From: an uncultured Acidobacteriota bacterium
Lineage (GTDB): Bacteria > Acidobacteriota > Thermoanaerobaculia > Multivoradales > SZUA-115
Length of the DNA stretch: 64,000 nucleotides
Reading direction: 5' to 3'
Assembly (NCBI GenBank): GCA_963805975.1
Contig: CAWDVR010000004.1
Coordinates: 480,001-544,000, forward strand
Made by a program: the position numbers and the translations under genes. The notes beneath the pieces are model-generated. The model worked only from the letters and a program-made list of their open reading frames with translations. It searched no databases and was not told the origin of the DNA. Numbering within the stretch: position 1 is the first letter of the stretch; every line of letters begins with the position of its first letter. Of the stretch, positions 29,005-43,957 are shown piece by piece.

Positions 29005-29036
29005 CTGACGCTTGGCTGACGCCGGGTCTGCATGAT
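29005..29036 (+). promoter_or_regulatory. SARP/OmpR-type promoter: CTGACGC-N4-CTGACGC-N8-CATGAT
   Basis: Two identical heptamers with 11-bp periodicity, ending 8 nt before a -10-like hexamer, in the AT-richer region upstream of the giant gene. Confidence 0.55.
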
Positions 29037-29130
29037 GCGACCCAACATCGCTGTCAGAGCACCTGATCGCGAGTCGCTCTCGACCCACGCAATGGGCTTC
29101 GGTACTGGCTTCGCACTGAGGAGGGTTTCG

Positions 29131-32100
29131 ATGAAAGTTCGTGGAATCTTGTTTGGTCTGCTCGCGCTGGCTTTCCTCACCGCCACCCTGCCGGCTGCCG
29201 CACAGCTCGGTCCGGGTCCCTTCGCCGCCTTCCCGACCTCGGACGAGACGGACGGCCGCTTCCTGGGGTTCGGTTGCCCGGGTCTCCAGACCTTCGAGTC
29301 GGGGGTCTCGATCACGCTGGCGGCACAGCCCTCCGAGACCGACTTCACCCTGAGCATCTTCGACGGCGACTCGAGCGGTTCGGATCCGTTCGGTCACTGG
29401 GACATCGGCGACCGCCAGCTCCTCTACAGCCTGTACTTCGACCCGTTCCGCCAGGGGAACACCAACCCCGCGGACCTGGTGGGCCAGTGGACCGGCAACG
29501 CTCCCAACCCGCCCACCAACCCGGTCCCGGACCCGAACAAGCAGTGGACGACCTCGGCCGCCACCATGCCCGACAACGACTGGTGGGGCGTGACCATCCA
29601 GACCTCGGCCCCTGCACAGGCGATGCCGGGCGCGAACTTCTTCTACCACCTGCGGATCGACGCGGACGGGACCTGCGCCCCGCTGGAGCTCCTGGAAGCG
29701 AACATCAAGGTGGCGGCCTCGGCGCCCCTCAACTTCGCGGCGCCCCGGTTCGCCTTCGTGGCGGCGCTTCGGCAGCTCGAGGACATCGGGGTGATCTATC
29801 CCGGCGCTCCGTTCCCGGACCTGCCGGGCGGCCGTGGCTACATCGACGAGCCCACGACCAACGACGGCACGTTCCAGTTCGCGCTCAACATCCCGCCGGG
29901 GGCCACGACGCTGAACCTGTATGACGGCGACTTCGATCACGGCACCGACCCGGTGGACAATTTCGGGATTCCCTCCGGCGTGCCTCTGAATCCTTGCATG
30001 GACCTGGACGATCCGGACACGCCGGCGGACTACGGCAACTTCCCTTCCGGTGTAGGGACGGCGGGGGCAGACCCCGAGGGCGCGGTGCCCTTCGGCCAGC
30101 CGGCCGACGACGTTTCCTTCGACATCTTCCGCCGCGGCGAGCCGGCCTCTGCGGACCGCCTCGGCTGCGTGCGTTACGAGATCACGGATCCCGACGGCAA
30201 CGTCTACGCGAACAACAACCCGTCGAGCAACGTCGAATGGGAGCAGTTCCGCATCGTCAGCCTGAACGATCCCGACGCGGGCGACCCCAGTCTGTACGAC
30301 CACCTGGCGCCGACCCCGTTCCTGACTCCCGGGACCTGGGACGTGCGCGTGGTCGGCCTCGACATGTCGAACCTGAACTTCTGGTTCGCCGAGTTTGGCG
30401 TCTGCTCGAGCCTCGAGAACCCGCAGTTCTTCATGCCGCTCGACTTCGAGAAGAACGGTTTCGGCAACACGGTCGCCTCGGGGGTGGTGGTGGCGGAGCA
30501 GTGGGCCAACCTGGGCATCCACTTCAGCACCAATGACCCGGTCAACCATCCGATCAAGACCTTCGACTCGGCGTTCCCCTTCGCCCTCGAGCTGGACCTC
30601 GGCACTCCCAACGTCGACTTCTTCGGTCTGGGGGTCGGCGCCGGTGGCGGCGCCGGCCAGCCGGGTGAGAACCGGGTGCCGCAGCGCAACATCCTGGTGA
30701 TCGCCGACAGCCCGGAGGCCGACGGCAACTACGACGGCGGCGGCGTGATCATCGTGACCTTCGACTCGCCGCGCCAGCTCTCCGCCGTGGAGCTGCTGGA
30801 CATCGAGGAAGCGGGCGGCACGGTGCAGGCGTTCGACTCGCCCGTGGGCGGCTCGCTGCTGGCCTCGGCGGCGATCCCCACCCGCGGCGACAACGGCTTC
30901 GTCTCCGTCCCCCTGGTCTCTCCAGGCGTGCGCCGCCTGGAGATCACCTTGGTGGGCGAGGGCGGCGTGGTCGCCATCCGGTCGGGCCAGGCGTTCACCC
31001 CGTCCTGCCCGCCGCCGGTCTTTGCGCTGGGCGACACGGTGTTCTACGACGACAACGGCAACGGCACGCAGAACCCCGGTGACGACGGCATCGCCGGCGT
31101 GGTGATGGAGCTCCTGGCCAACGGCAACCCGACCCCGATCGCGTCCGCGATCACCGGTGACACGGCCAATCCCAACTTCAGCAAGTGCCGGAGCCTGAAC
31201 ACCGGCCTCGACGAGCAGGGCCTGTACTGCTTCCTGGTGCCGTCTGGCGATTACACGGTGCGGGTGGCGGCCTCGAACTTCGCTTCCGGCCAGCCGCTCT
31301 TCGGCCTGGGCTCCACCACCGGCGGCGAGACCCAGACCAACACCGTCAGCAACGCCAACGTCATGACCTACGACTTCGGCTACCGCGGCACCGGCTCGAT
31401 CGGCGACCGGGTGTGGCGCGACAATGACGGCGACGGCGTGCAGGACGGCGGCGGCGAGACGGGCATCAACGGTGTGACCGTGCGTCTGCTCGACGCGGAC
31501 GACAACGTGATCGACACGCAGGTGACCGCCGGCGACGGCGGTTACCTGTTCAGCAACCTGGGCCCGGGCGACTACACGGTGGAGGTGATCCCGGCGAGCT
31601 TGCCGGCGGGCCTCGATCAGACCTACGACCTGGATGGCGTCGGCACCCCCAACAGCGCGGCGGTGAGCCTGGCGGCGGGCCAGAACCGCACAGACGTGGA
31701 CTTCGGCTACCGCGGCACGGCCTCGATCGGCGACCGGGTGTGGCTGGACCTGGACGGCGACGGCGTGCAGGACGGCGGCGGTGAGACCGGCATCAACGGT
31801 GTGACCGTTCGCCTGCGGGATGCGGGCAACAACGTGATCGGTACGCAGGTGACGTCCGGCGACGGCAACTACCTGTTCACCAACCTGGCCGCCGGCACCT
31901 ACACGGTGGAGGTGGACTCGACGACCCTGCCGGCGGGCTTGGCGCAGACCTACGACCTGGACGGTCTCGGCACTCCGCACCGCGCCACGGCGAGCCTGGC
32001 GGCGGGCCAGAACCGCATCGACGTCGACTTCGGCTACAAGCCGGCGACGCCGGTCTGCACCGCCGGCTACATGAAGGACACGTTCACGACGGCGAGCTTC

Positions 32101-34236
32101 TCGAACAACGAAGGCACCCTGGCGTGGAGCGCCGCGTGGATCGAGAACGACGTCGCCGGCGCCGGTCCGGGCAGCGGCAATGTGACGGTGGGAACTCCGG
32201 TATCCGGGTACCTGATCCTGCGCGACAGCCCGGACACCGGCACGCAGCCGAGCGCGGCGCGCGAGGCCAATCTCTCCGGCTTCGCCTCGGCGATGCTGTC
32301 CTTCGATTTCCACATCCGTGGGGTCGAGACCGACGACGCGGCGGTGGTGGAGGTTTCGAACAATGGAGGCGCTTCCTACACCGTTCTCGAGACCTTCACC
32401 GGCCTGACCGGGACGACCATCAGCTCGCGCAGCTACGACATCACGGCATACAAGGCGAGCAATACGCGGATCCGGTTCCGGATCAGCAACCTGTACGGCG
32501 GCGATGACGATTTCTTCAAGCTCGACCTGGTCCGTATCGACGCCACCTGCGTGCCGCCGCAGACCGGTTCGGTCGGTGACCGGGTTTGGAAGGACAGTGA
32601 CGGCGATGGCATCCAGGACGGCGGCGAGCCGGGGATCAACGGCGTCACCGTCCAGTTGCTGAATTCGGGAGGCACGGTCGTCGCGACGCAGGTGACCAGC
32701 GGCAACGGAAACTATCTGTTCAGCGGCCTCAACGCCGGGACCTATTCGGTGCGTGTCGTTTCGAGCACCGTGCCGGCTGGCTACTCGCAGACCTACGACC
32801 TCGACGGCACGGGCAGCGCCCACATCGCCAGCTTCTCGCTGGGCGCGGGACAGAATCGCACCGACGTCGACTTCGGCTATCGCCCGGCGCCAGTCTGCAC
32901 CGCCGGCTACCTGAAGGACACGTTCACGACGGCGGGCTTCTCGAACAACGAGGGCACGCTGAATTTCAACGGCTCGTGGATCGAATACGACGTGGCGGGA
33001 GCGGGTGCGAGTAGCGGCAACGTGACGGTGGGAACTCCGGTCGCCGGGTACATGATCCTGCGCGACAGCCCGGACACCGGGACGCAGCCGAGTGTGGCGC
33101 GCGAGGCCAATCTCTCCGGCTTCGCCTCGGCGACGTTGTCCTTCGACTTCCACATCCGTGGAGTCGAGGCCGACGACGCGGCGGTGGTGGAAGTTTCGAA
33201 CAACGGGGGAGCTTCCTACACCGTGCTCGAGACCTTCACCGGCTACACCGGCACCACGATCAGCTCGCGGAGCTACGACATCACGGCGTACAAGGCGACC
33301 AATACGCGAATCCGGTTCCGGATCAGCAACCTGTACGGCGGCGATGACGACTTCTTCAAGCTCGATGTGGTGCGCATCGACGCCGCTTGCGTGCCTCAGA
33401 CTGGATCGGTCGGCGACCGGGTGTGGAAGGACAGCGACGGCGACGGCGTCCAGGACAGCGGCGAGACGGGCCTCAACGGGGTTACCGTCGAGCTGCTGAA
33501 CTCGGGCGGCACGGTGATCGCCACCCAAGTGACGAGCGGCAACGGCAACTACCTGTTCAGCGGCCTCGCCGCCGGCACCTACAAGGTACGGGTCAAGTCG
33601 ACCACGGTGCCGTCGGGCTACACCCAGACCTACGACCTGGACGGCACCGGCACGGCGCACCTCGCGACGTTCACGCTGGCGGCGGGACAGAACCGCACCG
33701 ACGTGGACTTCGGCTACAAGCCAGCGCCGGCGTGCACGGCGGGTTACTTCAAGGACAACTTCGGCACCGCCAGCTTCTCGAACAACGACGGCACGCTGAG
33801 CTGGTCGGCGGCGTGGGTCGAGTCCGACAGCGCCGGCGCGGGAGTGAGCAGCGGCAACGTCACGGTGGGGACGCCGTACAGCGGCTATCTGATCCTGGAC
33901 GACAATCCGGACACTGGCACGCAGCCGAGCGCGGCGCGCCAAGCGAACCTCTCCGGCTTCGTCACCGCGACGCTCAAGTTCGACTTCCACACCACCGGCG
34001 GTACCGACGCGGACGACGCCGCGGTCATCGAGGTGTCGAACAATGGCGGCGCGTCCTACACCGTGCTGCAGACCATTACCGGACTGACGGGCACGAACGT
34101 CGGCTCGAAGACCTTCAACATCTCGGCCTACATCTCGAGCAACACGCGGATCCGGTTCCGGATCAGCGCCAACTATGGGGCCGCGGACGAGATGTTCAAG
34201 GTGGACACGGTGCGGATCGACACCACTTGTCCGTGA
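29131..34236 (+). CDS. Giant secreted/surface protein (1701 aa) with five SdrD B-like domains and three Cys-bracketed ~165-aa repeats
   Basis: SD GAGGAGG, signal peptide MKVRGILFGLLALAFL..AAA; GD(R/T)V(W/F).D.(D/N)G(D/N)G.Q...DFGY repeats; C-TAGY...ID..C domain three times. Confidence 0.88.
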   Translation: MKVRGILFGLLALAFLTATLPAAAQLGPGPFAAFPTSDETDGRFLGFGCPGLQTFESGVSITLAAQPSETDFTLSIFDGDSSGSDPFGHWDIGDRQLLYSLYFDPFRQGNTNPADLVGQWTGNAPNPPTNPVPDPNKQWTTSAATMPDNDWWGVTIQTSAPAQAMPGANFFYHLRIDADGTCAPLELLEANIKVAASAPLNFAAPRFAFVAALRQLEDIGVIYPGAPFPDLPGGRGYIDEPTTNDGTFQFALNIPPGATTLNLYDGDFDHGTDPVDNFGIPSGVPLNPCMDLDDPDTPADYGNFPSGVGTAGADPEGAVPFGQPADDVSFDIFRRGEPASADRLGCVRYEITDPDGNVYANNNPSSNVEWEQFRIVSLNDPDAGDPSLYDHLAPTPFLTPGTWDVRVVGLDMSNLNFWFAEFGVCSSLENPQFFMPLDFEKNGFGNTVASGVVVAEQWANLGIHFSTNDPVNHPIKTFDSAFPFALELDLGTPNVDFFGLGVGAGGGAGQPGENRVPQRNILVIADSPEADGNYDGGGVIIVTFDSPRQLSAVELLDIEEAGGTVQAFDSPVGGSLLASAAIPTRGDNGFVSVPLVSPGVRRLEITLVGEGGVVAIRSGQAFTPSCPPPVFALGDTVFYDDNGNGTQNPGDDGIAGVVMELLANGNPTPIASAITGDTANPNFSKCRSLNTGLDEQGLYCFLVPSGDYTVRVAASNFASGQPLFGLGSTTGGETQTNTVSNANVMTYDFGYRGTGSIGDRVWRDNDGDGVQDGGGETGINGVTVRLLDADDNVIDTQVTAGDGGYLFSNLGPGDYTVEVIPASLPAGLDQTYDLDGVGTPNSAAVSLAAGQNRTDVDFGYRGTASIGDRVWLDLDGDGVQDGGGETGINGVTVRLRDAGNNVIGTQVTSGDGNYLFTNLAAGTYTVEVDSTTLPAGLAQTYDLDGLGTPHRATASLAAGQNRIDVDFGYKPATPVCTAGYMKDTFTTASFSNNEGTLAWSAAWIENDVAGAGPGSGNVTVGTPVSGYLILRDSPDTGTQPSAAREANLSGFASAMLSFDFHIRGVETDDAAVVEVSNNGGASYTVLETFTGLTGTTISSRSYDITAYKASNTRIRFRISNLYGGDDDFFKLDLVRIDATCVPPQTGSVGDRVWKDSDGDGIQDGGEPGINGVTVQLLNSGGTVVATQVTSGNGNYLFSGLNAGTYSVRVVSSTVPAGYSQTYDLDGTGSAHIASFSLGAGQNRTDVDFGYRPAPVCTAGYLKDTFTTAGFSNNEGTLNFNGSWIEYDVAGAGASSGNVTVGTPVAGYMILRDSPDTGTQPSVAREANLSGFASATLSFDFHIRGVEADDAAVVEVSNNGGASYTVLETFTGYTGTTISSRSYDITAYKATNTRIRFRISNLYGGDDDFFKLDVVRIDAACVPQTGSVGDRVWKDSDGDGVQDSGETGLNGVTVELLNSGGTVIATQVTSGNGNYLFSGLAAGTYKVRVKSTTVPSGYTQTYDLDGTGTAHLATFTLAAGQNRTDVDFGYKPAPACTAGYFKDNFGTASFSNNDGTLSWSAAWVESDSAGAGVSSGNVTVGTPYSGYLILDDNPDTGTQPSAARQANLSGFVTATLKFDFHTTGGTDADDAAVIEVSNNGGASYTVLQTITGLTGTNVGSKTFNISAYISSNTRIRFRISANYGAADEMFKVDTVRIDTTCP
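32056..34233 (+). repeat. Intragenic tandem repeats of ~840 bp (Cys-bracketed domain plus SdrD B domain)
   Basis: Units start at TGC 32056, 32896 and 33733; units 1 and 2 are nearly identical at protein level. Confidence 0.9.
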
Positions 34237-34248
34237 TTGGGTGTCTGT

Positions 34249-34545
34249 ATGTCCAGCGTGAAGGAGCCGACGATCTTGGGACAGTTGACCATCCCGCCCT
34301 CTGTTCTCTTCCGAGACCTGGGCGGGGAGGCCGTGCTGCTGGAGCTCGAGACCGGCTGCTACTTCGGGCTCGACGAGATCGGGACCCGCATCTGGCGGCT
34401 GATCGAGAAGCACGGTGAGCTGCCGCGCGTGGAGCGCGAGCTGCTGGAGGCCTACGAGGTGTCGCCGGACCATCTGGCCGGCGACCTCTCCGCCTTCGTC
34501 CGCTCGCTGGTCTCGCGCGGCCTGCTGAGGGCCCATGAAGCGTAG
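34249..34545 (+). CDS. PqqD-family RiPP recognition element (lasso B1/E protein)
   Basis: GGEAVLLELETGCYFGLDEIGTRIW..I...LL.AYEV....LAGDL..FV.SL.SRGLL. Confidence 0.92.
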   Translation: MSSVKEPTILGQLTIPPSVLFRDLGGEAVLLELETGCYFGLDEIGTRIWRLIEKHGELPRVERELLEAYEVSPDHLAGDLSAFVRSLVSRGLLRAHEA

Positions 34546-34963
34546 AGCCCGCGCCTTCTTCTCGCTGGCGAGCGAAGAGCGAGACGTCCTCCTCGAAGCC
34601 TGGTGCCTCCTGCTGCTGGCGGATCTCGCCCTGCGCTGGCTGCCCTGGAGGCGGGTCGAGGGGCTGCTTGCACCCGCGCAGGGCTCCAGTCGTCTGACGC
34701 TGCTCTCGCCGGCACGGCTCGCCACGCTGGTCGAGATCGCGGCCCGGCACCATCTGGTTCCCATGACCTGCCTGCGGCGCGCGCTGGTGCTGCGCCGGCT
34801 GCTCTCGCGGACGGGCTCGAGCGGGGCCCTGAGACTCGGCGTCCGCCGCGAAGCGAACGAGCTCCTGGCCCATGCCTGGGTGGAAGTGGGCGAGCGGCCG
34901 CTGGGGGATGATCCTCAGGTAGCCCTCCGCTTTGCCCCCCTCCTGCCCGCTCACAGCGCGTGA
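34535..34963 (+). CDS. Lasso peptide B2 leader peptidase (transglutaminase-like Cys protease)
   Basis: TCLRRALVL...LRLGVRR...LAHAWVEVG (Cys-His-acid triad). Confidence 0.92.
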   Translation: MKRRARAFFSLASEERDVLLEAWCLLLLADLALRWLPWRRVEGLLAPAQGSSRLTLLSPARLATLVEIAARHHLVPMTCLRRALVLRRLLSRTGSSGALRLGVRREANELLAHAWVEVGERPLGDDPQVALRFAPLLPAHSA

Positions 34964-35042
34964 GACGAGTGCTAACAGTCGCCGGAGCGCTGGATCGAGC
35001 CTGCGACGCGCTCAGCTCGTTTTAGGAAGCAGTATTTTGTAA

Positions 35043-35077
35043 TGGTATGATACCGGCGGTCTGCGAGCCGGCGGTAT
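35043..35077 (+). promoter_or_regulatory. Extended -10 promoter (TGgTATGAT) with an overlapping inverted repeat, upstream of the precursor gene
   Basis: TG-n-TATGAT at 35043-35051; ATACCGGCGG-N8-CCGGCGGTAT at 35050-35077. Confidence 0.55.
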
Positions 35078-35152
35078 CCGTTCAGGCTGGCTACGAGTCG
35101 CTCTGTAGAGACTAGAGAGATGAAGCTCCAGCGGCCCGACCTGAGAGACACC

Positions 35153-35341
35153 ATGAGAGAACACGAGAAAGCGAATCAGGAAGGCGGTGGCACGCGGTCT
35201 TCCGTGCCCGCGGGCGAGCGGCCGCCGCGGCGCGCCTACAGCCCGCCCCAGCTCGTGGTCTATGGCACTCTTTCCGACCTGACCCAGGCCTTGGGCGTCC
35301 TTGGCCGCGACGGGTTGGCCGGCTCTCGTCCCCGTACCTGA
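35153..35341 (+). CDS. Lasso peptide precursor (A); predicted core ALGVLGRDGLAGSRPRT (35288-35338)
   Basis: Leader RRAYSPPQLVVYG (YxxPxL) with Thr at -2 (LTQ|A); Asp8 as ring acceptor; alternative start at 35120. Confidence 0.88.
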   Translation: MREHEKANQEGGGTRSSVPAGERPPRRAYSPPQLVVYGTLSDLTQALGVLGRDGLAGSRPRT

Positions 35342-35367
35342 ACCCCGTCCTGTCGCCACGAGCCCCG

Positions 35368-37149
35368 TTGCCAGGGTCCCTGCCACGGCAGCCTCCGCTG
35401 GCGGAGGGCGCCACGGCGGGCGGCTCCCACCCGCTGTCGCACGCGTGGCTGATCACCTGGGATCCGCACCATAATCGAGTCCGGGTAGGCTCCTCCGAGC
35501 CGTCGAGCCCCACTGCCGCGGATGCCACCTGCCTGTGGTGCGCAGGCTGGGTGGCGAATCGACCGGCGTTGAGCGCGAGGACCGGCCTCCCCCTCACGGC
35601 GACCGCTCGCGAGCTGGTGCCGGCGCTCTACGCCCGCGAGGGGCCCGAGGCGGCGCGGCAGATCGCCGGTGACCTGGCCTGGGTGCTGTGGGACCCTCGG
35701 CAGCGGCTTCTCTTCGCCTGCCGCGACCGGCTCGGAAGCCATCGCCTCCTCTACCGGGTGGTGGCCGACCAGATCCTGCTCTCTGGAAGCGTCGGGCCAC
35801 TCCTCTCCGACCCTCTCGTCCCTGGTCCGGGCTCGACGATCAATCTCTCGGCGCTCGTGGCGCACGTGCAGGGTGACGCGCTGCCGCCCGGGGAGACTTT
35901 CTTCAGCTCGATCCAGGCCGTCGAGCCGGCGACCTGCGTGACCTTCGGCGGCACGGCCGAGATCCGCCGGCGCTACTTCTGCCTGGCTGCCCAACCGCTG
36001 CTCGAGCTGCACAGCGACGCCGAGTATGCGGAGGCCTTCCGCGACCGGCTGCGGGAAGTGGTCGCGGACCATGCCGAGCCGGGACCCCTGGGCCTCACGC
36101 TGTCGAGCGGGCTCGACTCGACCTCGATCGCCGTCGCGCTCTCCGAGCTCGGCCGGGCCTCCGACGTGACCGCCATCACCTGGGTGACCCCGGGGCTGCC
36201 GGCGGCGGACGAGAGCGCGGGCGCCCGGGCGGTGGTGAGCCGTACCGGCCTCGGGCACCTGGAGATCCCGGCCGATCGACACTGGCCGCTGGCGACCGGC
36301 ATGGAGCTGGAGCCCCCCGCGGAGGGGCCGCCGCTGACGCTGTTCGGCGGGCTCTGGGACGTCACCTACGCGCTGGCTCGCGAGCGGCGGATCTCTTCCC
36401 TGTGGACTGGCCTGGGGGGGGACCATCTCTTCGGCGGGAACGTCTTCTCTTACCCGGATCTCCTGCTCACCGGCCGTTGGCTCGCGCTCGCGAGGCAGCT
36501 CCGGGACCATCTGCCGCGCTCGGAGTTCCGGCCCGCGGAGGTGCTGCGGTCGATGATCGTTTCCCCGATCCTCCGCTCCTACATGCCTCTGCCGCGCTTC
36601 CGCCGGGTCCCGACCGTGCCCTGGCTCACGGCCAAGGGGCTGGCCCTCTACCGCCCGCAGCGGCCCACCGCTCCGCGGCGGCTCCTGCCCGGCCGGCGCC
36701 AGCGGTTCGAGGCCCTCACCGAAGCGGCCCTGCCGCGGCTGGTGGAGGACCAGGCGGCCGCGGCGGCGCGCCATGGCGTGACTCTGCGGCATCCCCTGCT
36801 CGATCCGCGCCTGCTCGAGCTCGCGGCGAGCCTGCCCACCGACCAGAGCTTCCGCGCGGCTCGCCGCAAGGGGATCATGGTGCGCGCCATGCGCGGCCGG
36901 CTGCCCGACGAAATCCTCGACCGGCACGATAAGATTTATCCCACCGCGCTCGCCGAGCGCGGCCTCAAGGAGCGGGAGACGAAGAAGGTCTGGAGCCTGA
37001 TGGACAATCCGCGGCTCGGCGATCTGGGCCTGATCGAACCCGCCTCCTGGCGGCAGGCCTATCGGCTCTACCTCGATGGCCGCGAGGACTCCGACATGTT
37101 CTGGCACACCCTCACCGCGGAAGCCTGGCTGCGGCTGCACGGCGGCTGA
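35368..37149 (+). CDS. Lasso cyclase (asparagine synthetase B-like, C protein)
   Basis: RDRLG, LSSGLDSTSI PP-loop, TGLGGDHLFGG, HPLLDPRLLE; no N-terminal MCG glutaminase Cys; start uncertain. Confidence 0.88.
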   Translation: MPGSLPRQPPLAEGATAGGSHPLSHAWLITWDPHHNRVRVGSSEPSSPTAADATCLWCAGWVANRPALSARTGLPLTATARELVPALYAREGPEAARQIAGDLAWVLWDPRQRLLFACRDRLGSHRLLYRVVADQILLSGSVGPLLSDPLVPGPGSTINLSALVAHVQGDALPPGETFFSSIQAVEPATCVTFGGTAEIRRRYFCLAAQPLLELHSDAEYAEAFRDRLREVVADHAEPGPLGLTLSSGLDSTSIAVALSELGRASDVTAITWVTPGLPAADESAGARAVVSRTGLGHLEIPADRHWPLATGMELEPPAEGPPLTLFGGLWDVTYALARERRISSLWTGLGGDHLFGGNVFSYPDLLLTGRWLALARQLRDHLPRSEFRPAEVLRSMIVSPILRSYMPLPRFRRVPTVPWLTAKGLALYRPQRPTAPRRLLPGRRQRFEALTEAALPRLVEDQAAAAARHGVTLRHPLLDPRLLELAASLPTDQSFRAARRKGIMVRAMRGRLPDEILDRHDKIYPTALAERGLKERETKKVWSLMDNPRLGDLGLIEPASWRQAYRLYLDGREDSDMFWHTLTAEAWLRLHGG

Positions 37150-37151
37150 GG

Positions 37152-38360
37152 ATGAGCACACTGACGCGCGCCACTCTCCTCGCCAGGAAGCCTGACCTGG
37201 AGCTCCGCCTCGATGCCAGGAACCAGGTCGCGGTGATGGTCGGCGGCGAGGCCGTGCCCTGCGGCCCCTACGGACTGGCCGTTCTGGAGGCGTTCTCGCG
37301 GCCTGCCACTCTCGACGAGGCATTGCGCCGGGTGCAGGCCCGTGGCGCCCAGGACTGGATGGACCTCACCAGCGTCGTCGTGCGTCTCTACGAGGCCGGG
37401 GTGCTCCTCGACGGCGAGCGCGGCAAGCCGGCGCCAGAGAGGCGCTCCGGCTTTGCGAGCTGGTCGGTCCACGTCAAGATGCTCAACGACCGGGTGCGCA
37501 CGGCCAGCTACCTGAGGGCGATCGCGGAAACGGTGCGACCGGGCGACGTGGTGGTCGACATCGGCACGGGCACCGGGGTGCTGGCGGTGGCCGCGGCCCG
37601 TGCCGGGGCGCGGCAGGTGTTTGCCGTCGAGGCTTCCGGCATTGCCACGGTGGCCCGCGAGGTCTTCGCGAGGAGCGGCGTGGGCGATCGGATCACGCTG
37701 GTCGAAAGCTGGTCCACGCAAGCCGAGCTTCCGGAGCCGGCGGACGTGATCGTGAGCGAGATCATTGGCAACGATCCTTTCGGGGAACGGGTCCTGGAGG
37801 TGCTCGCTGATGCCCGGAGGCGGTTGGCCCGGCCCGGCGCGCGCTCGGTTCCCCGCCGCTTGCGGGTCTACGTCCTGCCGGTGACGGTCCCGGAAGAAGA
37901 GCTGGTGCGCCGCATGGGGAGCGAGGCGACCCTCGCCCGCTGGCGCTCCTGGTACGACCTCGACCTCTCCCCGCTCGCTCTGCTGGCAGAGCAGTCGGAA
38001 GAGCCGCTTTTCTTTATCCGCCCGCAGAAGGCGAGCCTCTGGCCGGCGCTCGCCGAGCCGGCGCTGGTGGCGAACGTGGACCTCGAAGCCGAGCCGCCCG
38101 GCGTGCTGGACACGACCGCGGAGGTCACGGTCACGGCTCCCGGCCTCCTGAGCGGCCTGCTGATGTACTTCGAGCTCGATCTCAGCCCCACGGTCACGTT
38201 CTCCACTCATCCCGCCCGGGTCGAGGAGGCCGGCTGCTGGCGGAGCCCCGTGTGGGTCCCTGCCCGGCGGCGGCGCTACGAGCCCGGCGAGCGTCTCTCC
38301 CTCCGCTTCGAGTATGGGCATGCCTCCCGCTGGACGCGGTTGACCCTTCTTCCCGCGTAG
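37152..38360 (+). CDS. PRMT-like (protein arginine N-methyltransferase fold) SAM methyltransferase with an N-terminal RRE/wHTH-like domain
   Basis: HVKMLNDRVRT..Y..AI, VVDIGTGTGVL, VFAVEAS, DVIVSEIIGNDPFGE (E-x8-E loop), C-terminal GLLMYFEL..FSTHP..CW. Confidence 0.8.
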   Translation: MSTLTRATLLARKPDLELRLDARNQVAVMVGGEAVPCGPYGLAVLEAFSRPATLDEALRRVQARGAQDWMDLTSVVVRLYEAGVLLDGERGKPAPERRSGFASWSVHVKMLNDRVRTASYLRAIAETVRPGDVVVDIGTGTGVLAVAAARAGARQVFAVEASGIATVAREVFARSGVGDRITLVESWSTQAELPEPADVIVSEIIGNDPFGERVLEVLADARRRLARPGARSVPRRLRVYVLPVTVPEEELVRRMGSEATLARWRSWYDLDLSPLALLAEQSEEPLFFIRPQKASLWPALAEPALVANVDLEAEPPGVLDTTAEVTVTAPGLLSGLLMYFELDLSPTVTFSTHPARVEEAGCWRSPVWVPARRRRYEPGERLSLRFEYGHASRWTRLTLLPA

Positions 38361-38369
38361 GGCCCCAGC

Positions 38370-39401
38370 TTGCAGCCTCCGAGCGCAACCGCCGGCCTCG
38401 GGCACGAGACCTACCGGGTCTTCGGGCAGACCCTCGCCACGAGCTTTCCGCTCGCGAACGTGCTCGCCTCCGGCCACGGCCCGGTCGATTTGGTCTTCTC
38501 CTGCACGGACCAACCCCCGAGCGAGGTGGACGACGCGGCGTTCGAGCCCTTCTATCAAAGCCCCGAGCGTACGGGCTCGGGAGAAGCGGTCTGCAGTCTG
38601 GCTCGCTTTCCCGGGGCTCGCCTCGTCGAGTGGGAGAGGCTGGGCTTCCCGCAGGTGGCCGACTTCTACTATCTCGGCCCGGCCCGGATTCACGCCCGAA
38701 GGCTCGCCGGCGGGAACGATGCCGAGATCGAGCAGTGCCTGCTCGGGCCGGTCCTCTCCTACTGGCTCGAGCAGAGGGGAATCCTCGCGTTACACGCCTC
38801 AGCGGTGGAGGTGGGGGGCGAGGCGATTGCCTTCCTCGCCGCCGGCGGCACCGGGAAGACGTCGCTGGCCGCGGCCTTCCTCGCAGAGGGGGACGCCCTG
38901 GTCACGGACGACGTGCTGGCCCTCCAGCCCGCTGCACGAGGATTTCTGGCGCTTCCCGGCTACCCGCAGCTCAAGCTCTGGCCGGATCTCGCCCGGCAGC
39001 TCTTCGGTGAGCGTTCGGCCCTGCCGCGCGTGCTTCCGGGGGTCGAGAAGCTGCGCGCCCCGGTGGGGGCCGGCTTCGGGCGGTTCTGTCACCAAACGCT
39101 GCCGCTGACCGCGCTCTACCTGCTCGAACGGCGACCCGAGGACGCGGGCCGCGACGGCCGCGTGGTTCCGGTCGCCTCACGAGACGCCCTGATCGAGCTC
39201 GTCCGGCACTCGTTCTCGCCCCGCCTGGCGGAGGCGACCCAACTCCAGGAGCGCCGCCTCACGCAGTTCGCCCGCCTGCTGCGGGAGGTTCCAGTCCGGC
39301 GTCTGCTGGTGCCCTCGGCTCTCGAGCTCCTGCCGCGGGTGGCCGAGGCGGTGCGGCGGGACCTCAGCCTGCCGCGAGGGAACCCTTCTCCTCGAGAATG
39401 A
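38370..39401 (+). CDS. HPr kinase-like P-loop kinase (lasso-peptide kinase type)
   Basis: LHASAV, AAGGTGKTSL (Walker A), LVTDD. Confidence 0.85.
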   Translation: MQPPSATAGLGHETYRVFGQTLATSFPLANVLASGHGPVDLVFSCTDQPPSEVDDAAFEPFYQSPERTGSGEAVCSLARFPGARLVEWERLGFPQVADFYYLGPARIHARRLAGGNDAEIEQCLLGPVLSYWLEQRGILALHASAVEVGGEAIAFLAAGGTGKTSLAAAFLAEGDALVTDDVLALQPAARGFLALPGYPQLKLWPDLARQLFGERSALPRVLPGVEKLRAPVGAGFGRFCHQTLPLTALYLLERRPEDAGRDGRVVPVASRDALIELVRHSFSPRLAEATQLQERRLTQFARLLREVPVRRLLVPSALELLPRVAEAVRRDLSLPRGNPSPRE

Positions 39402-41703
39402 GACGGCGCCTCTCCCCCCGCTCCTCCGCGCCTGCCGCCTCTCCCTGGCGGTCGAGCTCGTCGAGCGCCGCCAGGGCCTGGTTGTAGTAGTGCCGGGCGG
39501 TGGCGGCGGCGAGCGGCCGCGCCTTCGCCGCCGCCATCCGCGAATACTCGAAAGCGCGGCCCCACATCCGGGCCTGCCCGAAGTGATAGGCCAAGAGCTC
39601 GCAGGCCTCGGCCCGATCCGCCGGCAGCCGGGCCTCGATCGCCTCGGCGATCCGCCGGTGGAGGATCTGGGCCCGTTCGGGGGAGAGGCTGGCGGCGATC
39701 GCCCTGCGGATGGAGGGGTGGGCGAACTCGAAAGTGCCGTGCCGTGCTCCCTGGACCCAGAGCGCCACGTCGCGCTGGCGGCGGCTGTCCGCCCAGTAGC
39801 GCAGGAAATGCCGCACCAGCCAGCGCTGCAGCATCATCTCGACACAGGTCTCGACCACGCCGCCGTCCTCCTGCTCGGCAGCTTCCAGGAGCTCGGCTTC
39901 GAACCGCTGGCCGATCAGGGAGGCCAGGGTGAGCAGGCGCCGGGTGGAGGAGGGCAGCCGGCGGATACGCCGCAGGACCAGATCCTCGTGGCGCGCGGGC
40001 AGGTGCGACCCGAGCTGCCCCCCGAATTGCTTGGGCACGGCCGTCAGGCGCCAGCTCTTGCCCTCCGGCACCAGGGCTCCCTCGTCCCACAGCAGGTTGA
40101 TCCATTCGGTAAGGAGCAGCGGGGCGCCTTCGGTGGCAGCGAACAGGAACCGCGCCAGGGTGGCGCTGCCCTGCTTGCCGACCAGCGAGACGGCGATGCG
40201 GGCCACGCTCTCGGCCGAGAGGCGGTCGAGCGACAGGCGCCTGACGCGGCCTCGCGGCGCGCCGGCCGCGGCGAGGAGCTTCGCCAGGCCGCTCGACGCG
40301 GTCTCTTGCGGCCGGTAGGTCGCCACCACCCAGACCGGCAGGTCGGCGATCTCGGGGAGCAGCGCATGGAGCAGGTTGAAAGTGTCGTCGTCCATCCACT
40401 GCAGGTTGTCGAGAAAGAGGATCAGCGGGCGGGGTTTGCTCGCCGCGCCGGCGCCCGCTGTGACGTGATGGAAGAAGGCGCCGAGGGCGATGGCCAGGCG
40501 GCCGACCGGCAGCGGTGGCGGGTCGCCCGGCCTGGGGGCCAGCTCGGGCCGGAGCTCGCCGAGCTCCGGCACCAGCCGCGCAACGTCCGCCAGCGCGTCG
40601 CCCAACGGCAGACGGGTGATGCGCTCGGCGATCTCGACCTCGCTGGCGAGCGAGTTGCGGAGCGCCTCGATCAGCGGCTGGAAGGCGACCGGCGGCGCGA
40701 GATCGTAGCTGCGGCCGAGAAACACCGTCGCCCGCTCCCGGCTGGTGATCTCGTCGAGGACGGCGCGCACGAGGCGCGACTTGCCGATCCCCGCCTCGCC
40801 CTCCACCAGCGTCAGGCACCCCTGGCCGTCGCTCGCCGCGCGCCAGGTGTGGTGGAGGTGCTGGGACGCTTCCTCTCTTCCCACCAGCGGGATGAGGGGC
40901 CCGCGGGGAGCCGCCTTGTGCTCGCCACCGGCGAGCGCCGGCAGGCTCTCGTCGAGGATCTGCCGGTGGAGCTGGCGGGTCTCCTCCATCGGCTCGACGC
41001 CCAGCTCCCTGCCGAGCAGGCGCTCGAAGCTCTCGTAGTCCTCGAGCGCCCGGCTGCGGCGGCCGGTGTAGGCATAGAGCAGCATGAGCTGGCGGTGCAC
41101 CTCCTCCGACAGCGGGTCGATGCGCAGCAACTGCCGCGCGTACTGGATGCCGAACACGTGGCCGCCGGAACGCAGATGGTGCGCCACCAGGGCACGCAGG
41201 GCGGCGACGGCGGACTCGCGCAGGCGTTCCTGCTCGGCGAGCATCCATTCCTCGAACGGTGGGCTGTCGGAGAGAAAGAAGCCGGCCAGGAAGTCGCCGC
41301 GGTAGAGCTGCGCCGCCCGCGCCAGCTCCCGCGGGTCGGCGACGTCGCCGTCGCCCCAGCCGCGGTCGATCGCCTCCGAGAAGGCATGGAGATCGACCCA
41401 GCAGTGCTCGCCCGGTGCGAAGCGGATGCTGCCCTGCTCGGCGGAGATCAGTGGCGGGGCGCCCTCCGGCACCTGCAGCACCGCGCGCAGGTTGTAGAGG
41501 GCCTGGCGCAGGTTCTGGCGGGCCGCCGTTTCGCCGTGGTGAGGCCAGAACAGGCCCGCCAACTGGTCGCGGCTGAAGGCCCGCCCGGGGTGGGCGGCGA
41601 GGTAGGCGATGAGCGCGCGGGCGCGCTGCGACTCGAAGCGGACCACCCGGCGCGAACCGGAGATCTCGAGTTCCCCCAGCAGGCGGATGTCGAGGCGGGT
41701 CAT
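39364..41703 (-). CDS. SARP/BTAD transcriptional regulator with AAA ATPase and TPR-like domains
   Basis: LDIRLLG, RALIAYL..SRDQLAGLFWP..NLRQAL (wHTH); YRGDFL..W...E, DPLSEE.HRQLM (BTAD); LVGRE, EGEAGIGKSRL, LDNLQWMD; FAHP. Confidence 0.9.
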   Translation of the reverse strand: MTRLDIRLLGELEISGSRRVVRFESQRARALIAYLAAHPGRAFSRDQLAGLFWPHHGETAARQNLRQALYNLRAVLQVPEGAPPLISAEQGSIRFAPGEHCWVDLHAFSEAIDRGWGDGDVADPRELARAAQLYRGDFLAGFFLSDSPPFEEWMLAEQERLRESAVAALRALVAHHLRSGGHVFGIQYARQLLRIDPLSEEVHRQLMLLYAYTGRRSRALEDYESFERLLGRELGVEPMEETRQLHRQILDESLPALAGGEHKAAPRGPLIPLVGREEASQHLHHTWRAASDGQGCLTLVEGEAGIGKSRLVRAVLDEITSRERATVFLGRSYDLAPPVAFQPLIEALRNSLASEVEIAERITRLPLGDALADVARLVPELGELRPELAPRPGDPPPLPVGRLAIALGAFFHHVTAGAGAASKPRPLILFLDNLQWMDDDTFNLLHALLPEIADLPVWVVATYRPQETASSGLAKLLAAAGAPRGRVRRLSLDRLSAESVARIAVSLVGKQGSATLARFLFAATEGAPLLLTEWINLLWDEGALVPEGKSWRLTAVPKQFGGQLGSHLPARHEDLVLRRIRRLPSSTRRLLTLASLIGQRFEAELLEAAEQEDGGVVETCVEMMLQRWLVRHFLRYWADSRRQRDVALWVQGARHGTFEFAHPSIRRAIAASLSPERAQILHRRIAEAIEARLPADRAEACELLAYHFGQARMWGRAFEYSRMAAAKARPLAAATARHYYNQALAALDELDRQGEAAGAEERGERRRLILEEKGSLAAG

Positions 41704-41791
41704 CGAAAAGTCGTCGGGTCGCGAGAGATTCACAGTGTAGCGCGGAACGCTGTAGCAGCGTCGCTCCGGTCCTTCGGCACTGGCAGGGCCC

Positions 41792-41820
41792 TTGACAGGC
41801 CGCCGCCGTAGTCCTATCCT
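41792..41820 (+). promoter_or_regulatory. Sigma70 promoter of groESL
   Basis: TTGACA (41792-41797), 17 nt spacer, TATCCT (41815-41820). Confidence 0.85.
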
Positions 41821-41821
41821 G

Positions 41822-41848
41822 TTAGCACTCACCGACGCCGAGTGCTAA
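41822..41848 (+). promoter_or_regulatory. CIRCE element (HrcA operator)
   Basis: Perfect TTAGCACTC-N9-GAGTGCTAA. Confidence 0.97.
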
Positions 41849-41938: not shown

Positions 41939-42229
41939 GTGAACATCCGTCCCCTGAACGACCGTGTCGTGGTCAAGCGCATCGAGGCCCAGGAAGAGGT
42001 CCGTGGCGGCATCATCATCCCGGACACCGCTAAGGAGAAGCCGCAGGAGGCCGAGGTCATCGCGGTCGGCCCCGGCAAGCTCAACGACGACGGCAAGCGG
42101 GTGCCGATCGACGTCAAGGCCGGCGACCGCGTCCTGATCGGCAAGTACTCGGGCAGCGAGATCAAGGTCGGCGAGAACGACTACGTGATCCTGCGCGAGG
42201 ACGAGATCCTGGCCGTCGTCGAGAAGTAG
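41939..42229 (+). CDS. groES: Co-chaperonin GroES
   Basis: [29 protein letters not shown]; SD AAGGAGG. Confidence 0.98.

Positions 42230-43957
<1,728 letters not shown>

Follow-up and report, generated by a model that had tools for sequence, protein, structure and literature searches.

We analysed a window of 64,000 nucleotides from a contig of an uncultured Acidobacteriota bacterium, in which the open reading frame (ORF) at 35153-35341 on the + strand had been read from the letters alone as encoding a new lasso peptide precursor. The ORF encodes 62 amino acids, and our analysis confirms that reading of its sequence. It lies in a run of genes on the + strand with the order SdrD_B surface protein, B1, B2, A (the precursor), C, methyltransferase and kinase, on which a BTAD/AAA regulator gene converges from the - strand. 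The features are the following:

29032-34236 (probable start 29131), + strand: SdrD_B repeat protein of 1734 aa with five SdrD_B domains (Pfam SdrD_B, E 7.5e-100)
34237-34545 (likely ATG at 34249), + strand: lasso B1, a PqqD/RRE leader-binding protein (Pfam PqqD, 58.6 bits, cut-off 23.4)
34535-34963, + strand: lasso B2 leader peptidase, motifs located, with Cys79 and His113 (NF033537, 64.1 bits, cut-off 33)
35043-35051, + strand: candidate extended -10 promoter element, read from the sequence and speculative
35153-35287, + strand: precursor leader of 45 aa with Tyr(-17), Pro(-14), Leu(-12), Gly(-8) and Thr(-2)
35288-35311, + strand: core residues 1-8, the predicted macrolactam ring from Ala1 to Asp8, including Arg7
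35312-35341, + strand: core residues 9-17 and the stop codon, the predicted loop and tail, with Ser13, Arg14, Arg16 and Thr17 as candidate plugs or modification sites
35368-37149, + strand: lasso cyclase C, asparagine-synthetase-like (Pfam Asn_synthase, 116 bits, cut-off 21)
37152-38360, + strand: PRMT-type SAM methyltransferase of 402 aa with a double-E loop (Glu203/Glu212) and a THW loop that reads GCW (361-363)
37152-37427, + strand: N-terminal domain of the methyltransferase (residues 1-92), RRE/winged-helix fold in the predicted model (pLDDT 86.7)
38370-39401, + strand: HPr-kinase-like lasso peptide kinase with His142, Lys163, Asp180 and Asp181
39364-41832, - strand: BTAD/AAA SARP-like regulator (Pfam BTAD and AAA_16)

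The claim that the ORF encodes a lasso precursor is borne out by its leader motif, by its match to the NF033521 profile (24 bits, cut-off 19) and by the adjoining B1, B2 and C genes. The leader has the YxxPxL motif and the Thr at -2 that define class II, and the core has the corresponding small first residue (Ala1), an acidic residue within positions 7-9 (Asp8) and no Cys. Encoded at 35288-35338, the 17-residue core, ALGVLGRDGLAGSRPRT, consists of Ala1, Leu, Gly, Val, Leu, Gly, Arg7 and Asp8, followed by a nine-residue tail of Gly, Leu, Ala, Gly, Ser13, Arg14, Pro, Arg16 and Thr17; it contains no His, and its tail lacks Phe, Tyr and Trp. As Asp8 is the only acidic residue of the core, the ring can only be formed between Ala1 and Asp8. 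This predicted ring and the predicted cleavage after Thr-Gln, both part of the sequence-only reading, are supported, and none of the alternative cleavage sites that we examined combines a Thr at -2 with an acidic residue at 7-9. Moreover, the Asp at the ring-closing register is invariant in nine aligned sister precursors. The leader positions also agree with those of BsfA, except that BsfA has Ile at -2 (PMC10368454, in excerpt), and Ala, at 16%, ranks second among the first residues of lasso peptides in the available part of PMC7549694. Judged by these sequence features, the precursor is a real and ordinary class II lasso-type sequence, and the peptide by itself is an ordinary new member of its kind. 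A six-frame scan of the 5.36-Mb genome (six contigs) with the leader pattern gave four matches, of which only 35153-35341 has both a short core with an acidic residue at 7-9 and adjoining lasso enzymes; neither tblastn nor the motif scan found a second precursor or cluster of this kind anywhere in the genome.

If translation began at the in-frame ATG at 35120, the precursor would have 73 aa, and it is in this form (P0121) that a public protein collection holds the product, contrary to the expectation that gene callers would miss the ORF. A homologue search with the precursor returned two proteins, namely P0121 itself and P0122, an orthologue from soil with 79% identity, whose initial Met corresponds to 35153 and whose core is the same in all residues (17/17). 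In the soil-metagenome run X1, two contigs cover 34258-36494 and 36736-39500, so that a relative carries the B1, B2 and precursor genes, most of the cyclase gene, and those of the methyltransferase and the kinase. The codon differences to the orthologue amount to four silent and no replacement changes in the core, compared to five silent and four replacement changes in the leader motif, and five and eight, respectively, in the first 27 codons. The core, with four silent changes and not a single replacement, is therefore under purifying selection.

The best NCBIfam match of the cyclase is the lasso cyclase family NF033535, with a score of 146 bits, which is below the cut-off of 525, and its ATP-loop motif at 246 and its Asp motif at 348 are intact. 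The family matches of the kinase are weak and below cut-off (TIGR04352, E 7e-6, and Hpr_kinase_C); its four listed residues form the His-Lys-Asp-Asp motif that lasso kinases carry according to the text available from PMC9266682. The methyltransferase gene lies between those of the cyclase and the kinase, with gaps of 2 and 9 bases. The candidate -10 element lies 5' of the precursor, where the DNA is richer in AT (48% GC vs 70%). A promoter scan found no promoter before the precursor, its sole match being at the groES gene, and a hairpin 3' of the precursor is no more stable than shuffled sequences (z -0.13). The groES-groEL pair is found at 41939-43957, with a sigma-70-like promoter match at 41792-41820. 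The regulator overlaps the stop region of the kinase by 38 bases on the opposite strand, and its relatives flank the lasso loci L205, L212 and L229 and the enzyme loci L021, L022 and L107.

The SdrD_B protein, the first gene of the run, has a likely signal peptide as read from its sequence. It abuts B1, and proteins 46-66% identical to it are found beside eight sister lasso clusters; SdrD_B-type proteins lie near sister clusters including L219, L223, L232, L243, L254, L256 and L258. A scan of 10 proteins encoded in the cluster and next to it detected neither an exporter nor an isopeptidase. Since an exporter is missing there and a secreted repeat protein accompanies the sister clusters, the product may be slightly more likely to be cell-associated or to act as a signal than to be an antibiotic.

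The best phmmer match of the methyltransferase in the PDB is PRMT6 (E 2e-23), and all 60 matches listed are PRMT-type entries. Its predicted structure (pLDDT 89.9) contains the Rossmann and beta-barrel folds and has T. brucei PRMT7 (4m38) as the best Foldseek match (E 1.9e-25; TM 0.73 by target length). In the alignment with PRMT6, Glu203 and Glu212 fall in the double-E loop; among 36 homologues Glu212 is invariant and Glu203 nearly so. Trp363 of the THW loop is kept in at least 90% of the homologues, and the two residues preceding it vary (GC here, often NHW or CSW as the complete loop). In the lasso loci, the full-length enzymes have kept the first Glu in 44 of 45 cases and the second in 43 of 45.

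Modelled on its own, the N-terminal domain of the enzyme has an RRE (leader-binding) fold, with a beta-sheet and a three-helix winged helix. VIA-align matches it best to MccB (Z 11.1, rmsd 1.9 over 80 residues), and to the further RREs of MibB (Z 9.7), TigE (9.1), PqqD (7.5) and TbiB1 (7.0). It also matches the winged-helix parts of two protein lysine methyltransferases, Rickettsia PKMT2 (Z 8.2) and Rv2067c (Z 7.5). Foldseek gave no match for the domain at E<=0.001, with ThcOx, TigE and PqqD ranked second to fourth; the profile-profile match of the methyltransferase to PqqD is weak (E 0.054), the fold searches being more informative. Prediction of a complex between the domain and the precursor was uninformative (score 0.00). 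From the modelled fold, it is likely that the domain binds the leader of the precursor.

To describe the distribution of the enzyme we use type A for the full-length methyltransferase with its N-terminal domain and type B for PRMT-like enzymes without this domain. At E<=1e-10, the family comprises 604 of the 7995 proteins scored. Of 159 loci around relatives, 138 encode a full-length type-A enzyme: 40 of them have lasso genes, 40 have DUF6325/SHOCT genes and 58 have neither. Among the latter, 39 are short, and the 19 that have flanks of 4 kb or more on each side show mixed contexts, as do the 66 neighbour proteins scanned from 20 other-context type-A loci. Because so many type-A loci are without lasso genes, the enzyme can probably act without a lasso neighbour. 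The lasso-linked type-A loci include, going by the names of their records, members of Cyanobacteria, Acidobacteriota, Chloroflexota, Actinomycetota, Myxococcota, Gammaproteobacteria and Bacteroidota. In 140 regions picked by leader or B2 matches and not by the enzyme, 131 have a lasso gene match, and type A is present in 4 of these 131 and type B in 20. The enzyme tree is midpoint-rooted on a subset of 106 sequences, in which 12 SHOCT-type and 25 other-context rows were kept, and we therefore claim neither a donor nor an order of events.

In Actinomycetota, the type-A gene directly precedes the gene of a small SHOCT-domain protein, with a DUF6325 gene nearby (e.g., L071:11309-11599 and 32 similar loci). 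This small protein has an Arg-rich N-terminal run in 32 of 33 cases and is a candidate non-RiPP substrate of the type-A enzyme. Type B is common in lasso clusters (e.g., L211, L228, L244, L255, L286, L291, L293, L011 and L012), and some type-B enzymes overlap a PqqD match, so they are likely fused to an RRE. Cores beside type B often have Lys-Thr/Ser near their end; type B may be a Lys methyltransferase. Both types are present in L019, L024, L034 and L290.

We then compared the Arg content of 103 lasso cores with the presence of the enzyme, after dropping 4 cores without a nearby lasso gene and 20 enzyme-free rows with less than 5 kb of flank. Core families were defined by clustering at 50%; L034 and L253 share one core. 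Arg is present in 25 of 27 cores (19/20 families) beside type A, but in only 33 of 60 cores (17/35 families) without a PRMT-like gene, a label that covers about 10 kb on each side, and in 7 of 16 cores (5/13 families) beside type B only. By family, type A differs from the set without a PRMT-like gene with a Fisher p of 4e-4, relatives not being independent and the two sets differing in their taxa. The control set is without Myxococcota and Cyanobacteria, of which B2 was matched in 45 of 251 genomes of the former and NF033521 in 6 of 251 of the latter. The fraction of Arg in the core is 0.107 with type A vs 0.040 without a PRMT-like gene (Mann-Whitney p=7e-6), and if only kinase-bearing clusters are considered Arg is found in 23/25 (type A) vs 28/49 cores. 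GC content does not explain the difference: it is lower in the type-A loci (0.59 vs 0.65), and in the controls it is uncorrelated with core Arg. Moreover, the fraction of Arg in the leaders is similar in the type-A and control sets (0.089 vs 0.098). In a relaxed search of 18 more type-A lasso loci, five plausible precursors (selected by eye, 2-7 bits) all contain Arg; one precursor is doubtful (L057), and 12 loci gave none.

Three comparisons within the data agree with this association. The sole Arg-free type-A family (L069/L149, region L069:4330) has Gln in place of the second catalytic Glu, which was noticed post hoc; by its sequence, this Glu-to-Gln enzyme is a candidate for a natural loss or change of function. 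The enzymes of L296 and L301 form a separate clade that has both Glu but no N-terminal domain, and their cores are Arg-rich. Type-B enzymes are mostly without the double-E, having the first Glu in 3 of 26, and the cores beside enzymes that lack it are richer in Lys (0.083 vs 0.035, p=0.006). Finally, none of the eight closest sister clusters, which have an SdrD_B protein and a kinase 36-49% identical to the one studied here, has a methyltransferase, and an Arg-containing core is found in one of the eight.

The position of Arg varies among the type-A cores, with no fixed site. Among the distinct cores, 16 of 19 have Arg in the tail and two have it only in the ring; ring Arg is enriched beside type A (10/19 vs 10/57 distinct cores), and an Arg-X-Arg motif occurs in only 6 of 20 type-A families. 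Such a position-free pattern suits a leader-guided enzyme whose substrate, like that of many lasso tailoring enzymes, is the linear precursor. Because two cores have Arg only in the ring, Arg7 would be as good a target as the residues of the tail.

On balance, we consider it probable that the locus encodes a lasso precursor that is processed by B1, B2 and C and whose Arg side chains are methylated by an RRE-guided, PRMT-type enzyme. The methyltransferase and the kinase would modify the linear precursor first, an order that we infer. The RRE-fold domain would hold the leader, and the side chain of at least one core Arg (Arg7, Arg14 or Arg16) would become methylated. B1 would bind the leader, B2 would cut after Thr-Gln and C would close the Ala1-Asp8 ring around the tail. 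From what is known of the family, cleavage and ring closure are very probable. Methylation of Arg in this peptide appears likely; it probably occurs on the linear precursor and yields monomethylarginine, which is favoured because the best structural match is PRMT7-like and the core has an Arg-X-Arg site. PRMT7 prefers Arg-X-Arg according to part of PMC13689401, and the Arg-Pro-Arg of the tail fits this preference. It seems somewhat probable that the kinase phosphorylates Ser13 or Thr17, the only residues of the core available to it, and a Ser or Thr is found at a comparable tail position in most sister cores. The hint of the sequence-only reading at Arg methylation and Ser/Thr phosphorylation thus gains support from the predicted PRMT-type methyltransferase and HPr-like kinase that follow the cyclase.

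Could the methyltransferase be a protein-arginine methyltransferase of general function, with other proteins such as the surface protein or the regulator as its substrates, and merely travel with a cluster that still makes its lasso peptide? The 98 of 138 full-length type-A loci without a lasso gene in the sampled DNA, the mixed neighbours of type A and the occurrence of the winged-helix fold in PKMT2 and Rv2067c all speak for it. We nevertheless regard it as unlikely, since it leaves unexplained the Arg enrichment of the neighbouring cores, the Gln exception and the Arg-poor sister cores. Moreover, the gene is tightly placed between the cyclase and the kinase genes, and no match to the SdrD_B protein was found at the other type-A loci among L016-L174. 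It is very unlikely that the enzyme methylates the peptide elsewhere than on Arg, be it the C-terminal carboxyl, Asp, or a backbone or terminal nitrogen. In the partial accounts available, the known lasso methyltransferases StspM and LasF do modify the C-terminal carboxyl, those of the PIMT type modify Asp, and the PRMT-like TsaG methylates His; the THW loop, too, is altered here. Against this, the enzyme retains the two Arg-binding glutamates, His is absent from the core, and the last residue of the core is one of nine different residues among 19 type-A cores. Furthermore, the enzyme matches PRMTs in sequence and fold, and not PIMT or O-methyltransferases.

The tail raises a separate question. 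Arg14 and Arg16 are its only large side chains besides Leu10, and a threaded product with these two as plugs has a good chance of being correct. The size of the plugs governs lasso stability, as stated in the accessible text of PMC7549694, and benenodin-1, whose ring also has eight residues, is held threaded by the non-aromatic Glu14 and Gln15 (PMC13352647, in part); as the ring of benenodin-1 sits between these two, position 14 fits a plug role. That the tail is free of aromatic residues had been considered unusual, but the same is true of 10/20 type-A families and 11/35 enzyme-free ones. A branched-cyclic product, in which the ring is closed but the tail is not stably threaded, or a cleaved and modified linear peptide, would suit a tail rich in Gly, Ala and Ser and a cyclase so far below the NF033535 cut-off, and caulosegnin I, with its eight-residue ring, is described in excerpt as unthreading upon heating. 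Yet the cyclase motifs are intact, Asp8 is conserved and benenodin-1 is threaded, which makes such a product quite improbable here. The sequence-only reading had gone further in proposing that methylation of Arg or phosphorylation of Ser13 or Thr17 could tune how firmly the peptide is threaded. Arg14 and Arg16 are indeed the sole large residues late in the tail, and tail Arg is frequent beside type A. However, the clusters L285, L298 and L300 have an eight-residue ring and a nine-residue tail with the same R14-P-R16 as here, and none of five genomes checked, theirs included, has a full-length match to the enzyme. These clusters support Arg as a natural plug and uncouple the plug from methylation. 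Also, ring Arg is enriched as well as tail Arg, and a single methyl group would add little bulk. We thus find the tuning of threading by methylation unsupported and doubtful as the purpose of the modification, and retain Arg side-chain methylation by a leader-guided enzyme as the preferred reading.

The cluster resembles the class II systems with split B1/B2 and an HPr-like kinase, namely those of paeninodin (PadeK), ThcoK, pseudomycoidin and the bsf cluster of Bradymonas sediminis, with which it has in common the leader motif, B1, B2, C, the His-Lys-Asp-Asp kinase and a Cys-free core. In the sources as excerpted, the known lasso kinases phosphorylate either a C-terminal Ser or Ser3. Whereas paeninodin-type cores end in Ser, the core studied here ends in Thr17 and its Ser13 is internal; unlike BsfA, it has no Ser3. 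Compared to the paeninodin-type clusters, the PRMT-type gene and the upstream SdrD_B protein are additional, and neither exporter nor isopeptidase is among the cluster genes.

With the eukaryotic PRMTs (T. brucei PRMT7, PRMT6, CARM1, PRMT1 and PRMT3), the methyltransferase shares the Rossmann and beta-barrel folds, the SAM motifs, the double-E pair of Glu nine residues apart and the Trp of the THW loop. It differs from them in being bacterial, only about 22-25% identical (by structural alignment), equipped with an N-terminal RRE-fold domain and a GCW loop, and part of a RiPP cluster. TsaG and TvaG of the thioamitide clusters are likewise RiPP-tailoring methyltransferases (pfam06325) with a predicted PRMT-like structure, but TsaG bis-methylates a His, a residue that this core does not have; this comparison is by description, not by sequence (bioRxiv 2020.12.17.423248, in part). 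StspM and LasF, which act on the C-terminal carboxyl, and TceM and LihM (PIMT-type, aspartimide) are SAM-dependent lasso tailoring enzymes as well, in the text available, but these are O-methyltransferases of other families. As to the product, it can be likened, by description and not by sequence, to benenodin-1, with its eight-residue ring and non-aromatic residues 14/15, and to lariocidin, a cationic lasso peptide which also has 17 residues but a charge of +7, far above that of this core; for neither of the two does the accessible portion of PMC13352647 describe Arg methylation.

Side-chain methylation of Arg is not among the lasso modifications covered in the available parts of two reviews, from 2026 (PMC13352647) and 2022 (PMC9266682). 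Our literature search for PRMTs in RiPP or lasso pathways, whose coverage excluded most subscription journals, found no report of this enzyme. The nearest cases, each from a partial source, are the alpha-N-dimethylation of the N-terminal Arg of plantazolicin, citrullination and the methylation of His by the PRMT-like TsaG (bioRxiv 2020.12.17.423248). Another is SznE, cited as an arginine methyltransferase of the streptozotocin cluster. Reviews, in the passages accessible, describe PRMTs as eukaryotic enzymes. The novelty of the cluster lies in a PRMT-type, RRE-bearing enzyme that probably methylates Arg of the core. A wider proposal has, in our view, an even chance of being right. It holds that the enzymes are a widespread bacterial family of true PRMTs with their own leader-binding RRE, which place methylarginine on lasso peptides in at least seven phyla and on small Arg-rich proteins of Actinomycetota, and that sisters without the double-E have switched to, e.g., Lys. 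The present peptide would then be the first methylarginine (and phosphorylated) lasso peptide, and its enzyme a leader-programmable bacterial PRMT. A bacterial PRMT and a defined substrate of 62 residues in a single gene run allow a direct and cheap test of Arg methylation on a bacterial peptide. The enzyme might also be developed into a leader-directed tool that methylates Arg in a site-tolerant manner, and the natural series of intact double-E, Glu-to-Gln and lost double-E could show how the specificity of PRMTs changes.

Some further precursors in the compared loci are of note. Six clusters (L032, L033, L038, L041, L043 and L118) encode long, Cys-containing cores that start with Met-Pro-Thr-Pro-Pro and have no acidic residue at 7-9; they adjoin lasso-type B1, C and kinase genes and may not form a lasso. 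Five precursors beside type-A enzymes (L023, L044, L069, L096 and L149) have Val and not Thr at -2, and thereby resemble the leaders with Ile or Val at -2 known from Bradymonadales and Acidobacteriaceae. Finally, the lasso clusters of L238 and L259 each have a second precursor-like ORF nearby (L238:5468 and L259:6030), which is rich in Cys and has another leader.
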